Source of the DNA: Desulfuromonadaceae bacterium
GTDB lineage: Bacteria; Desulfobacterota; Desulfuromonadia; Desulfuromonadales; JAAYDE01
Assembly: GCA_012512925.1 (NCBI GenBank)
Contig: JAAZDE010000151.1
Coordinates: 1-54,777, forward strand
Reading direction: 5' to 3'
DNA: 54,777 nucleotides
In this document: positions 34,110 through 42,264 of the stretch, piece after piece
Layout: each line of letters starts with the position of its first letter
Position numbering within the stretch: position 1 is the first letter of the stretch
The notes under the pieces: model-generated
Seen by the model: only the letters and a program-made list of their open reading frames with translations
What the model was told of the DNA's origin: nothing
Database searches by the model: none
Made by a program: the position numbers and the translations under genes

Positions 34110-38207
<4,098 letters not shown>

Positions 38208-38663
38208 CGTTTGCTTTTTCCTCATTATGAATTTTTTGTTTCTTGTTCCCTGTGGCCATCCGGAGAAGGTTCCGTTCGGTGTGGTTAAAATAGCACTCCT
38301 GGCCAAAGGTGGAGGAGATATCCTGGAATCAGGGGTCGACCTGAATTCAATGCAATTTTCTGTCTTTTGGAAAGGAACAGGGACATCAGTCATTCTTTCA
38401 AGAGGTTTTCCCTCGGGATTTTGGGAGGAAAAACCCACCATTGACAACTACGCATTCTTTGGGCGAACAAAAAATAAAATTATAATCTAAAAAAAGAAAA
38501 TCAGGGACGACAATACTTTTGGGCCATTTTTGTGTTAATTTTACATAATTTAAATGAAGCGTAGGGAAATAATCTGTACCAAGGGATGAAGTGGTTGAAA
38601 AAAGGAAAGGTCAGCGCCGTTTTTCGCCCAGCCATGGTATTGTTGATAAAGGAGGTTTGACTC

Positions 38664-38822
38664 ATGGACATGCAAGAACTGCTTATCTTTTTAGGTGTGG
38701 TGGCCCTTTATTTCATTCTCAACCGCTGGGTGTTGCCGCATTTCGGCATCCGCACCTGACTTTCCAAAAGCTGCGATCTTCCGGTGCGGAAGAACAAAGA
38801 GGAAGAGGAGAAGGAAAAATAA
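38664..38822 (+). CDS. candidate small membrane selenoprotein (in-frame UGA at 38757-38759)
   Basis: AAGGAGG SD 8 nt before ATG. MDMQELLIFLGVVALYFILNRWVLPHFGIRT-UGA-LSKSCDLPVRKNKEEEEKEK-TAA. Hairpin follows the UGA; terminator follows the TAA. Confidence 0.65.
38760..38805 (+). promoter_or_regulatory. putative bacterial SECIS element
   Basis: Perfect 7-bp stem TCTTCCG/CGGAAGA (38777-38793) with a G-containing loop (GTG) about 24 nt after the UGA. Possible lower stem TTTCC/GGAAG. Confidence 0.55.
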
Positions 38823-38824
38823 TG

Positions 38825-38857
38825 GGGGCGGCCCTTCGCGGGCTGCCTCTTTTTTTT
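38825..38857 (+). terminator. intrinsic terminator
   Basis: Stem GGGGCGGCCC / GGGCTGCCTC, loop TTCGC, then T8. Confidence 0.88.
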
Positions 38858-38992
38858 GGCTGTCTGCTGCAAACCGCGTTTTTTGCTTCTGGTCAAGGCT
38901 GCAGGTATTGGGACGCAATGATAGGGTGTCCCTGCAAATCGAATTCCGCGCGTCTCGTCTGCCTTGCCCGATTCCTGTTTTTTTGCGGCCAT

Positions 38993-40432
38993 TTAGAGAA
39001 AGGGAGAAAAGAGCTTACAAAAAGAGTCCCGGAGCCTAACGGGGAGGGGGCGCCCATCGACCTCCTCGAGAGTGACCTGGCGGGAGTTTCTGCGGGTCTG
39101 TTCGAAGTGCTCAGACAGAATTTTGACCGTTTCGGGATCGAAGACTTCCACATTGAATTCAAAATTGAGGCGCAGGCTGCGGGGGTCCAGATTGGCCGAG
39201 CCGACCAGGGCGAAGAAGGTGTCGACCAGCAGCAGCTTGTTATGGGCAAAGGGGGGTGGACGGTAGTAGATGCGGGTTCCATATTCGAGGAGCTCCCAGA
39301 GATAGGCCCGGGTCGCCCAGTGGACGTAGGGAAGATTGCTGCGTCCGGGCAGAATGATCTCCACCTTGACGCCGCGCAAGGCGGCGCTGTTGATGGAGGA
39401 GATCAGATCGCGGTCGGGGATGAAGTAGGGGGTCATGATCCGCACCCGCTGGCGGGCGCAATCAAGGGCACCCACCATCAGCCAGCGGAGTTTCTCGAAA
39501 TCCTCGTTGGGACCGGCGCTGATCCCCCGGCAGTAGGCGGTGCAGTCTTCCAGCGGTGGTGAATGAGGGCGGGTGCTGACCTCCTCGCCGGTGGCGAAAT
39601 GCCAGTCCTCAAGGAAGGTGTCCTCAATCTGACCGACCACCGGTCCTTCCGCCTGAAAATGGAGGTCGATCACATCCCCCCGGTCGATCTTACTGGAGAG
39701 CCAGCTGCGGCCGATGTTGATGCCGCCCGTGAAGCCGATTCTTCTGTCCACCGTAAGCAGTTTGCGGTGGTTGCGCAGATGGAGATGGAACATCCCCCAG
39801 GAGGTGAAGGGGGGGAGAAAACGAACGGTGCGCACGCCGGCCCGGTTCAACAGCGAGCGGGCTGAGGGTAAGGCATAACGCTCCCCCAGGGCGTCGACCA
39901 GGACACGGACATCGACCCCGCGCTGGGCGGCGGCCCCCAGCTCATTGATGAAGCGCCGCCCGATCCGGTCGCTGCCAAAGATGTAGGTGGACAGGAAGAT
40001 GCTCTCTTCGGCTTTGGCAATGGCCTGCAGCATGGCCGGGAAAATCTCGTTGCCGTTGATCAGGGGCCGCAGACGGTTGCCGGCGGTCAGCGGCCGCCGG
40101 GTGATGGCGTTGGAGAGATGGAGCAGGGCGGCGAGATTCTCCGCGGGGAAGGGAGGGACCGGATCGGCGGAAATGACGAAATGCCGGGACGCGGGGGTCA
40201 GCCACTGCATGCCGCGGCCGCTGGTTTGCCAACTGCGGGCGCGGGTGCGGATGCGGTTGACCCCAAGCAGCCAGTAAAGGCTGAAGCCGATGCCGGGAAT
40301 GAAAAGGCAGATGAGGATCCACACCAGGGCGGCGCGGGGATCGCGTCGGTAGAGCAGGGCGTGGCCGGCGGAGAAGAAGCCGGCCATCAGCAGTAACAGA
40401 CCAAATAGCCAGTTCAGGTGATGAAGGAGCAT
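38993..40432 (-). CDS. cls: cardiolipin synthase (PLD superfamily)
   Basis: Two N-terminal TMs and two HKD motifs (NHRKLLTVD, AHNKLLLVD..GSANLD.RS..LNFE), TPYFIP. ATG40432 follows GGAGG. Confidence 0.9.
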   Translation of the reverse strand: MLLHHLNWLFGLLLLMAGFFSAGHALLYRRDPRAALVWILICLFIPGIGFSLYWLLGVNRIRTRARSWQTSGRGMQWLTPASRHFVISADPVPPFPAENLAALLHLSNAITRRPLTAGNRLRPLINGNEIFPAMLQAIAKAEESIFLSTYIFGSDRIGRRFINELGAAAQRGVDVRVLVDALGERYALPSARSLLNRAGVRTVRFLPPFTSWGMFHLHLRNHRKLLTVDRRIGFTGGINIGRSWLSSKIDRGDVIDLHFQAEGPVVGQIEDTFLEDWHFATGEEVSTRPHSPPLEDCTAYCRGISAGPNEDFEKLRWLMVGALDCARQRVRIMTPYFIPDRDLISSINSAALRGVKVEIILPGRSNLPYVHWATRAYLWELLEYGTRIYYRPPPFAHNKLLLVDTFFALVGSANLDPRSLRLNFEFNVEVFDPETVKILSEHFEQTRRNSRQVTLEEVDGRPLPVRLRDSFCKLFSPFL

Positions 40433-40463
40433 CTCATTATGGCCTCCCGAAGCCGAAACTCCA

Positions 40464-41405
40464 CTACGGATTTTCCTCCAGGAACCGTTCCGCCTGAATT
40501 GCCGCCATGCATCCGGAGGCGGCGGCGGTGATTGCCTGGCGGAAATGGGGGTCCTGGACATCGCCGGCGGCGAAAACCCCGGGGATATTGGTCCTGGCCC
40601 CGGTGCCGGTCAGCAAATAGCCGCGCTCCTCCATCTCCACCTGCCCCTTAAACAGACCCGTGTTGGGGATATGGCCGATGGCGATGAAAAGACCGTCGCA
40701 GATCATTTCCTCCTCCTTGCCGGTGGCAACGTTCTTGAGGCGGATGCCGGTCAACCCTTTCTGTTTGTCGCCGAGGATGGCGCTTACCACCGAATCCCAG
40801 TGAAAGACGATCTTCTGGTTGGCGAAGGCCCGCTCCTGCAGGGGCGGCGAGGCGCGAAGGGCATCGCGGCGGTGGATGACATGGACCTTGCTGGCGAAAC
40901 GGGTCAGGAAGGTGGCCTCCTCCATGGCCGTGTCCCCTCCTCCGACCACCGCTACTTCCTTATCGCGGTAAAAGAAACCGTCGCAGGTGGCGCAGACCGA
41001 TACCCCCTTGCCGTAGAGTTCCTTTTCGTGAGGGAGGTCGAGCAGGCGGGGGGAGGCGCCGGTGGCGATGATGAGGGTGCGGCAACGATAGCTGTCGTCG
41101 CCGGCATGGATGGTGAAGGGGTAGGAATCAAGTTCTACCTTGGTCACCTCCCCGGCCAGGAAGCGGGCGCCGAAACGGCGCGCCTGTTTTTCCATCTCCT
41201 CCATCAGCACCGGTCCGTCGATCCCCTCGGCGAAACCGGGGTAATTCTCCACCAACGTGGTGGTGGTCAGCTGCCCTCCCGGCTGGCTGCCGTGAATGAC
41301 CAGCGGCTCCAGATTGGCGCGCGCCGCGTAGATGGCGGCGGTGAGCCCTGCCGGTCCCGACCCCAGGATGATGACGTTCAGTATCTCGTTATCTTTTTTC
41401 TGCAT
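40464..41405 (-). CDS. trxB: thioredoxin-disulfide reductase
   Basis: GSGPAGLTAAIY, GGQL..T..VENYPG, CATCDGFF, GGGDTAMEEA, FAAGDV..RQAITAA. ATG41405 follows AAGGAGG. Confidence 0.96.
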   Translation of the reverse strand: MQKKDNEILNVIILGSGPAGLTAAIYAARANLEPLVIHGSQPGGQLTTTTLVENYPGFAEGIDGPVLMEEMEKQARRFGARFLAGEVTKVELDSYPFTIHAGDDSYRCRTLIIATGASPRLLDLPHEKELYGKGVSVCATCDGFFYRDKEVAVVGGGDTAMEEATFLTRFASKVHVIHRRDALRASPPLQERAFANQKIVFHWDSVVSAILGDKQKGLTGIRLKNVATGKEEEMICDGLFIAIGHIPNTGLFKGQVEMEERGYLLTGTGARTNIPGVFAAGDVQDPHFRQAITAAASGCMAAIQAERFLEENP

Positions 41406-42264
41406 CGACAACCTCCTTGAACTGTTCTTCGGCATGGTAGGAAGACCTTACCAGGGGCCCGGCCTCGACATGGGCGAAGCCGATTTTCAGACCTTCCTTT
41501 TTGATTTCATCGAATTCCTCGGGGGGAACATAGCGGTGGACCGGATAGTGATTTCCGGTTGGCCGCAGGTACTGCCCAACCGTCAGCAGCCGGCAGCCGG
41601 CTTCGGCCAGATCGTTCATGGCTTCCGTCAACTCCCGGCGGCTCTCTCCCATCCCCAGCATCAGGCCGCTTTTGACCGGAATCGCCGGGTAGGTGTCGCG
41701 GACGCGGGCCAGCAGTTCGAGGGAGCGCCGATAGTCGGCCGCCGAACGGACCTGTGGGTAGAGTCGCGGCACCGTTTCCAGATTGTGCCCAAGAATATCA
41801 GGGCCGGCGGAAAGAATTCGTTGCAACGCCCGGGGATTTCCGCCCAGGTCGGGGATGAGCAACTCCACCCGGCAGGAGGGCGCGGCGCGGCGGATTTCAC
41901 CGACTACGGCGGCGAAAACGGAGGCGCCTCCGTCGGCGAGATCATCGCGGGTCACCGAGGTGATCACCGCGTGGCGCAACTCCAGTTCGGCGAGAGCGGC
42001 GGCCACCTTGGCCGGTTCTTCAGGCTCGGGGGGAAGGGGCTTGCCATGGGCGACGTTGCAGAAGGCGCAGTCGCGGGTGCAGAATTCGCCGAGGATCATG
42101 AAGGTGGCCGTTCCCCGGCTCCAGCATTCCCCCTGATTGGGGCAGGCGGCGCTGCGGCAGACCGAATGGAGGCCGTGGTCGCGGTGCCATTTTTCTATGC
42201 GGGCCGCCTTGGGGCCGCCTTGCGGGCGGACCTTTAGCCAGGCTGGTTTGCGCTCTTGCTTCAA
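41389..42264 (-). CDS. lipA: lipoyl synthase
   Basis: RKPAWLK, CRSAACPNQGECW (auxiliary cluster), CTRDCAFC (radical SAM), RSSY. Confidence 0.96.
   Translation of the reverse strand: MKQERKPAWLKVRPQGGPKAARIEKWHRDHGLHSVCRSAACPNQGECWSRGTATFMILGEFCTRDCAFCNVAHGKPLPPEPEEPAKVAAALAELELRHAVITSVTRDDLADGGASVFAAVVGEIRRAAPSCRVELLIPDLGGNPRALQRILSAGPDILGHNLETVPRLYPQVRSAADYRRSLELLARVRDTYPAIPVKSGLMLGMGESRRELTEAMNDLAEAGCRLLTVGQYLRPTGNHYPVHRYVPPEEFDEIKKEGLKIGFAHVEAGPLVRSSYHAEEQFKEVVDAEKR

Follow-up and report, generated by a model that had tools for sequence, protein, structure and literature searches.

The eukaryotic membrane selenoproteins SELENOK and SELENOS consist of a single membrane helix anchoring a short, disordered, charged cytosolic tail that carries selenocysteine (Sec), and the Sec–Cys selenenylsulfide of SELENOS is reducible by thioredoxin. 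In NCBIfam, the FeoB-associated Cys-rich membrane protein, of about 50–60 residues, has a membrane helix at its N-terminus and Cys residues in its cytoplasmic tail. Here, we describe a small gene at positions 38,664–38,822 of contig JAAZDE010000151.1 (assembly GCA_012512925.1) from a Desulfuromonadaceae bacterium (Desulfobacterota); "the window" denotes the whole stretch of 54,777 nucleotides (nt) that was analyzed. The gene contains an in-frame TGA at codon 32 and, judged by comparison with its homologues, is almost certainly a genuine selenoprotein gene. As a whole, the locus is best explained as encoding a 52-residue membrane-anchored selenoprotein, a reading to which we assign a probability of roughly 0.87; that it forms a Sec/Cys redox centre at the membrane is a more tentative proposal. 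The family appears to be new, as do its size and anchoring, and its decoding mechanism is ordinary.

The likeness to SELENOK and SELENOS is one of architecture only: the small protein is modelled as one helix plus a disordered tail, but it is bacterial, about half their size or less, and matched no Pfam family at E ≤ 10. In addition, its Sec lies 5–6 residues past the helix-end motif, whereas that of SELENOK and SELENOS is at the extreme C-terminus, and its Sec insertion sequence (SECIS) lies inside the coding sequence (CDS), as is usual for bacteria and unlike these two proteins. Homologues with Cys in place of Sec (hereafter, Cys forms) from Planctomycetota have Cys-rich tails resembling that of the FeoB-associated protein, but none of 11 family members matched a model in NCBIfam, and the core N-R-W-x-L-P-x-x-G-x-x-T-[U/C] is specific to the present family. 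Proteins with the HMA motif G-M-T-C-x-x-C differ in spacing (x4 or x5 in our family), and the small protein gave no HMA match and has a tail predicted to be disordered. Among bacterial selenoproteins, TsoA (LULAXC motif, NF045695; PMC13188914, Table 1) shares a short U-x-x-x-C-type motif with Leu after Sec; its spacing is U-x3-C, whereas the small protein has T-U-L-S-K-S-C, that is, U-x4-C, which is sometimes x5 in the family. NF045695 was matched neither by the window protein nor by ten Cys forms in our NCBIfam scan. KCU-star/DUF466 proteins (NF033934; PMC13188914) are likewise bacterial selenoproteins of very small size, cut short at the Sec codon by annotation pipelines, but they carry a C-terminal Sec in a C-U pair, the available parts of the 2022 Haft preprint and PMC13188914 mention no membrane helix for them, and NF033934 was not matched by the window protein in the NCBIfam scan.

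The NCBIfam scan (release 20, June 2026) of the small protein returned no family at E ≤ 10, and the Pfam and NCBIfam scans of the ten Cys forms returned no small-protein family, the sole match being the thioredoxin half of P0107, a database protein discussed below. Among 120 listed homologues, 'hypothetical protein' is the only name that sources give, and no precomputed Pfam domain is recorded for any of them. In the ESM Atlas, the nearest cluster to a natural Cys-form query (score 0.88; a lead only) was a 56-residue 'hypothetical protein', mostly from Planctomycetota. A small membrane U-x4-C protein is absent from Table 1 of the May 2026 inventory, which holds 119 families (PMC13188914). In the evaluation table of deep-Sep, one Geobacter sulfurreducens and one Desulfuromonas genome are credited with 13 selenoprotein genes apiece, and neither is among the organisms that the accessible part of that paper names for its new families (PMC12013277). 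BSepDB comprises 111 families compiled from earlier reports (PMC13326102, as far as its text is available). The family is not described in the accessible portions of two older read-through surveys (PMC1242214, PMC1914089), the 2022 Haft preprint, the BSepDB report (PMC13326102) or the deep-Sep report (PMC12013277). Our literature search did not find it either, and it may have been listed in Haft and Tolstoy 2025 or in survey supplements. The protein is only about 50 residues long, which may be why the family was overlooked.

The gene reads as 31 sense codons (MDMQELLIFLGVVALYFILNRWVLPHFGIRT), the TGA, 20 further sense codons (LSKSCDLPVRKNKEEEEKEK) and a TAA at 38820–38822, preceded by a Shine–Dalgarno sequence, all as given in a preliminary description made from the letters alone. 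That description had also placed an intrinsic terminator 2 nt past the TAA, and this proved to be the sole terminator-like site found by a terminator scan of 38300–39100.

We investigated whether relatives share this arrangement with a six-frame search, reading through stops, of the window's genome and 60 relatives, which represent 27 families within its order. A match with exactly one in-frame TGA, spanning query residues ~3–51, was found in 54 of the 61 genomes. All 30 order-level loci that were fetched share one design: a start codon (ATG in 29, GTG in 1) 28–31 codons before the Sec codon, a hydrophobic stretch ending in L-N-R-W-[VI]-L-P-x-x-G-[VI]-x-T, the segment U-[LMI]-S-x-x-C-x-L-P-V-R-[KE] and, after a charged tail, the true stop (TAA, TAG or TGA) 15–26 codons past the Sec codon. 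In an alignment of 27 sequences (A1), W22, P25, G28, T31, U32, C37, L39 and P40 are invariant; W22, L24 and P25 are conserved in both A1 and a further alignment (A6), in which the columns of T31, C32 (U) and C37 are also invariant. A profile built from the 27 sequences had matches in 185 of 401 genomes drawn from across the phylum, and only one of the phylum matches listed lacks the TGA, aligning over the helix alone. Over all fetched loci, the aligned Sec position is TGA in 129, a Cys codon in 13, and TAA or TAG in none; six other pattern matches among these loci are chance occurrences in unrelated frames.

Conservation past the TGA has a coding signature in 124 distinct Sec-form genes. For Thr at −1, each of the four ACN codons is in use. 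Ser at +2 is kept in 112 genes with codons of both families (TCC 43, AGC 28, TCG 20, TCT 13, TCA 4, AGT 4), and Cys at +5 in 114 (TGC 85, TGT 29), most of the other ten being U-x5-C variants. These synonymous Ser and Cys codons indicate that the frame remains protein-coding past the UGA.

Next to these genomic loci stand the stored proteins. A profile search of 1.84 billion representative proteins yielded 778 matches at E ≤ 1e-3, and we classified 159 stored proteins (the 150 matches listed, the query, its truncated self and seven cluster members). Cys occupies the Sec position in 109 of them, with the consensus W-V-L-P-x-F-G-[VI]-x-T-C-M-S-G-A-C, whereas 26 stop one residue before it and are Sec forms cut by gene callers. 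Trp is found there in seven, because the TGA was translated under a TGA=Trp code, and R (2), L, G or E in five; the remaining 12 fall outside the strict pattern, and by eye comprise five Cys, five Trp, one truncated and one Gly form. In P0014, P0030, P0040, P0044 and P0114, the residue at the Sec position is Leu, Arg or Gly, for which the codons TTA, CGA and GGA would be one step from TGA; each may be a genuine replacement, a sequencing error or a copy in decay.

The truncated records bear on the view that the UGA is an ordinary stop ending a 31-residue membrane peptide, with the downstream conservation due to an RNA element or a second feature. A 31-residue product cut at ...FGIRT is already in the protein collection (P0002, 100% identical), so gene callers do end the gene there, as the preliminary description had foreseen. 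The 26 truncated forms and the partly RNA-driven conservation downstream (LPVRK, see below) would also suit such a peptide. Nevertheless, we regard this view as very improbable: Ser at +2 and Cys at +5 survive synonymous and codon-family switches, a stop at this codon is always TGA (129 of 129) and never TAA or TAG, the Cys-codon homologues read straight through the same motif, the true stop and the terminator come after the extended frame, and every carrier tested for Sec machinery has it. The Trp-bearing entries (seven in the strict pattern and five by eye) and the few with R, G or L raise a further alternative, namely that the UGA is read as Trp or another standard residue through recoding or an alternative code, or that a Cys form is decaying here into a pseudogene. 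We give this still less credence, and hardly any at all. The window's own genome employs TGA as a stop elsewhere (family members have it as their real stop in 10 of the 30 order-level loci) and has a complete Sec system, which argue against this alternative; a pseudogene, moreover, would not retain a precise TGA, an open downstream frame and a covarying hairpin in 54 of 61 related genomes and in loci labelled with at least six phylum-level groups.

In a scan of one genome per species, we kept the best 80 of 192 confirmed places and grouped them by record label. Sec forms made up 66 of these 80, from Planctomycetota, Desulfuromonadales/Geobacteraceae, Syntrophobacterales, Desulfarculales, Myxococcota, Methylomirabilota/Rokubacteria, Acidobacteriota, Zixibacteria and Deferrimicrobiaceae; the 13 Cys forms were all labelled Planctomycetota, and the motif match was missing at one place. 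The tails of Cys forms often bear additional Cys residues, arranged as CC or CxxC. Five Cys-form genomes each had one Cys copy and no Sec paralogue, and the Sec and Cys forms therefore behave as orthologous replacements. By sequence comparison, then, the two forms appear as single-copy genes, one standing in for the other in Desulfobacterota, Planctomycetota, Methylomirabilota and other phyla.

Bacterial SECIS (bSECIS) criteria place the loop about 16–37 nt from the UGA, with a G within the first two loop bases. The hairpin TCTTCCG-GTG-CGGAAGA that the preliminary description had pointed out is present in the window as a perfect 7-bp stem with a GUG loop, the stem beginning 17 nt and the loop 24 nt after the UGA, and by itself folds at −8.4 kcal/mol. 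We compared 118 distinct Sec-form sequences, aligned gaplessly from the UGA, under a simple rule (contiguous stem, loop of 3–8). A hairpin of at least 5 bp lies at the same place in 113 of the 118 Sec forms, compared with 346 of 1180 shuffled sequences and with 5 of the 13 Cys forms, and 112 of the 118 have a G in the first two loop bases. The stems are clade-specific: those of the window's order read CUUCCG/CGGAAG or CUCCCG/CGGGAG, Planctomycetota have ACGCGG-GUU-CCGCGU or GCGCGG-…-CCGCGC, Syntrophobacterales have GGGAUC-GGA-GAUCCC, and the Methylomirabilota type has UGCUCC-CGUGA-GGAGCA.

As the register differs by clade, pairs were counted on the 53 sequences sharing the register of the window, and hairpins were scored one by one. 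The pair 24–34 is U-A in 27, C-G in 25 and unpaired in one, and the pair 21–37 is C-G in 30, U-A in 7, U-G in 2 and A-U in 1. None of 500 shuffles reached the observed covariation score or number of double changes, and pairing was 78% in the true register compared with 43–63% in slid registers. Column 24 is a synonymous Leu position, whereas column 34 switches Lys to Glu (residue 43); given that the two columns covary, the Lys/Glu change is tied to a silent Leu change across the stem. In every clade, the residues past the second Cys spell the clade-specific hairpin. The residues past the Cys encode a covarying stem, and the RNA structure thus seems to dictate the peptide tail: 'LPVRK' is best explained as conserved on account of the RNA hairpin and not of protein function, and the protein core proper would be the helix plus G-x-x-T-U-x-S-x-x-C. 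On 'LPVRK' this reading departs from the preliminary description; the hairpin proposed there is conserved with compensatory changes.

A competing pairing exists in the window, between CCGCACC, which ends at the base before the UGA, and GGUGCGG, which overlaps with the loop and the 3′ arm of the SECIS. The minimum free energy fold of 38750–38870 (z = −1.8) prefers it, pairing 38750–56 with 38783–89; the upstream arm of this fold is not conserved, most relatives reading CAG-ACN there.

The window's own genome encodes selB (375.7 bits), selA (607.4 bits), selD (364.7 bits) and tRNA-Sec (72.4 bits), all above curated cut-offs. Its selD is itself a selenoprotein gene with one in-frame TGA. Two hairpins follow the UGA of this selD (L010:1531, contig C17), and the second (GGCGCAG-GUU-CUGCGCC, 27 nt downstream of the UGA) resembles the small-gene hairpin in its 7-bp stem, with a GUU loop. 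A selA match was found in 371 of the 401 phylum genomes, and co-occurrence with selA therefore says little. Among the 20 listed genomes without a selA match, eight carry the peptide: five are at least 93% complete and all have selB and tRNA-Sec, and the other three are 61–79% complete and carry TGA forms. Outside the phylum, selA was present in all five Sec-form genomes tested. Accordingly, the TGA, the Cys homologues, the hairpin and the Sec genes all agree with a selenoprotein, which the preliminary description had proposed, and none of the refuting conditions named there was borne out. As a separate observation, one genome of the same phylum (G199), in addition to its canonical selB and tRNA-Sec, has a second selB-like open reading frame (ORF; G199:C19:91158-92403, outside the window), which covers the N-terminal 353 of 581 model positions at 268.7 bits and adjoins a second tRNA-Sec-like gene (52.9 bits).

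Several results weigh against the selenoprotein reading or limit it. The ratio of nonsynonymous to synonymous substitution rates for the five codons past the UGA was 0.59, below one but calculated from very few sites, versus 0.21 upstream. A look-up of sequencing runs for 38450–38950 returned no RNA run. Five of the 118 Sec forms lack a contiguous 5-bp stem under the simple rule, and the difference in hairpin energy between Sec and Cys forms was weak (Mann–Whitney U test, p = 0.045; n = 13 Cys forms). RNAalifold gave no consensus for the mixed alignment of the 118 sequences, because the hairpin register shifts between clades, and an Rfam scan of 38600–38900 at E ≤ 10 returned chance-level terminator-like matches and no SECIS family. 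Finally, a promoter scan of 38300–39100 gave no plus-strand promoter, leaving the extended −10 box of the preliminary description without support; this box is doubtful in any case, since the transcript start that it implies falls on or inside the Shine–Dalgarno sequence.

AlphaFold2, run with a 57-sequence alignment, predicted the single N-terminal helix expected from the membrane-spanning part noted in the preliminary description (residues 3–26, pLDDT about 90; mean pLDDT 88–91 over residues 1–20) and left the tail without structure (mean pLDDT 73.6). Just 1–4 residues flank the helix on its N-terminal side, the tail is long and highly charged, and K+R content is higher after the helix than before it in 49 of 57 family members. 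From the short flank, the K+R excess after the helix and the charged tail, we infer an N-out, C-in orientation, which would bring Sec32 and Cys37 near the cytoplasmic membrane surface.

Taken together, the proposed mechanism would run as follows. The UGA at codon 32 would be decoded as Sec by the genome's own SelA, SelB, SelD and tRNA-Sec, helped by the SECIS-type hairpin that starts 17 nt downstream within the CDS. A single N-terminal membrane helix would carry a short cytoplasm-facing tail composed of the invariant core G-x-x-T-U-x-S-x-x-C, the RNA-constrained stretch and the charged stretch, in this order. Sec32 and Cys37 may then form a reversible selenenylsulfide, which the thioredoxin system would re-reduce, and the outcome would be a membrane-surface redox centre for oxidative or thiol/sulfur stress. 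We take this thioredoxin-coupled redox role to be the likeliest mechanism, but put it forward only tentatively. It is somewhat more speculative, and on balance rather unlikely, that the family is both among the most widespread of bacterial selenoproteins and a minimal membrane selenol/thiol catalyst, cycled by thioredoxin, with which anaerobes detoxify membrane-proximal oxidants (perhaps lipid hydroperoxides, reactive sulfur species or oxidised quinones).

Neighbouring genes were counted in 135 distinct loci. Thioredoxin is nearby in 10 of them; 7 of these 10 are Cys-form loci (of 13 in all), in which it mostly follows the small gene closely and shares its strand, and the other thioredoxin-neighbored loci include one Zixibacteria and one Desulfobacterota Sec locus. 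trxB is nearby in the window and in L055. Rubrerythrin is found near 21 loci, the superoxide reductase desulfoferrodoxin near 11 (divergent) and cardiolipin synthase near 19 (convergent), and universal stress protein and an extracytoplasmic function (ECF) sigma factor with a zf-HC2 anti-sigma factor also recur. These recurrent neighbors point to thiol and oxidative-stress chemistry. Other contexts recur as well. An MBL-fold/rhodanese fusion gene lies just before the small gene on the same strand in 12 of the 135 loci (Planctomycetota-labelled, in the range L086–L100), a CusB/HlyD-type membrane-fusion gene cluster comprises 11 loci, some labelled Planctomycetota, and an ArsR-family regulator cluster 15. 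The small gene directly precedes the CusB/HlyD-type gene in three or four of L086–L100, and the context of these Planctomycetota-labelled loci differs much from that in the window's order.

These latter neighbors raise the possibility that the same selenoprotein, instead of cycling with thioredoxin, uses its Sec/Cys pair on the inner face of the membrane to bind a soft metal, metalloid or chalcogen (Hg, Cu, Cd, As, sulfane sulfur or selenium) and passes the ligand to efflux or detoxification. In its favor are the MBL-fold/rhodanese fusion upstream of the gene, the CusB/HlyD-type protein that follows it, the nearby ArsR-family regulators and the extra tail Cys of many Cys forms. The T-C-x-x-x-x-C of the Cys forms recalls the G-M-T-C-x-x-C metal motif. 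Predicted metal-handling selenoproteins are also known, namely MerT-like, CopZ-like, SaoX and HgcA (PMC13188914, Table 1). Still, the spacing is unlike that of the HMA motif, no HMA or other metal-domain model matched, metal-type neighbors are limited to some Planctomycetota loci, thioredoxin (10 loci) and oxidative-stress neighbors are at least as frequent, and no metal gene adjoins the small gene in the window. On balance, we consider metal, metalloid or chalcogen binding rather unlikely, but it is the main and a serious rival to the thioredoxin-coupled role.

The redox mechanism faces difficulties of its own. To our knowledge, U-x4-C is not a classical redox spacing, and the ArsR, CusB/HlyD and MBL-rhodanese neighbors together with the Cys-rich tails fit metal or sulfur binding equally well. 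No universal partner gene was found among the 135 loci, the small gene mostly appearing monocistronic. In the window's order, the stress genes are convergent or divergent and not co-transcribed, and they may be inherited synteny. P0107 joins the peptide to a thioredoxin domain; however, it may be a frameshift artefact, as its C-terminal end looks out of frame. Moreover, selA is present in all five Cys-form genomes tested, so that Sec capacity fails to separate the Sec and Cys forms; the idea that Cys forms live in Sec-less genomes is thereby ruled out for the genomes tested.

If the selenoprotein reading holds, the selenoproteome counts of Desulfobacterota, Planctomycetota, Methylomirabilota and others would each be short by one gene, which is carried by about half of the sampled phylum genomes. 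Pipelines systematically give a truncated peptide of 28–31 residues or nothing, a fault that a profile from these alignments would remedy. As a mini-selenoprotein anchored in the membrane, the protein would differ from every entry in the tabulated part of the 2026 inventory (PMC13188914), and it would be a possible architectural bacterial counterpart of SELENOK and SELENOS. Its length of about 50 residues and its 6-residue Sec/Cys loop bring it within reach of chemical synthesis, and this, with the natural single-copy Sec and Cys orthologues, would make the question of why Sec is used instead of Cys directly testable. The locus also appears to offer a clean case of a SECIS RNA dictating the amino-acid sequence of its own tail.

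Table 1. Features of the small gene and its surroundings, in positions of the window.
Feature	Position	Strand	Detail	Basis
Shine–Dalgarno AAGGAGG	38649-38655	+	8 nt 5′ of ATG at 38664	Read from sequence
CDS of the predicted 52-residue selenoprotein	38664..38822	+	Sec = residue 32; TAA included	Translation and homologues
TGA, probably read as Sec (residue 32)	38757..38759	+		TGA/Cys codons at the aligned position in homologues
TGC, Cys37	38772..38774	+	Five residues past Sec (U-x4-C)	Invariant in alignments A1 and A6
Predicted membrane-helix coding part	38670..38741	+	Residues 3-26, ending in conserved N-R-W-x-L-P	AlphaFold2 and conservation
SECIS-type hairpin UCUUCCG-GUG-CGGAAGA	38777..38793	+	Codons D-L-P-V-R-K	Fold and comparative counts
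Intrinsic terminator	38824..38858	+	11-pair stem (38824-38850) plus T-run, 2 nt past TAA	Terminator scan
Proposed extended −10 box TGgTATTGT	38635..38643	+		Letters present; unsupported by promoter scan
Large sensor-kinase-like ORF	34110-38447	−	Flanks small gene	ORF list
Cardiolipin synthase gene	38993..40561	−	Convergent with small gene	TIGR04265, 302 bits, above cut-off
Thioredoxin-disulfide reductase gene (trxB)	40464..41435	−	1.6 kb downstream	TIGR01292, 409.6 bits, above cut-off

In the window, the small gene stands alone between the sensor-kinase-like ORF and the cardiolipin synthase gene. On the minus strand past it, cardiolipin synthase is followed by trxB, lipA and lipB. The interval 38460–38560, between the start of the sensor-kinase-like ORF and the small gene, is markedly A+T-rich and holds two promoter-like sites, both on the minus strand.

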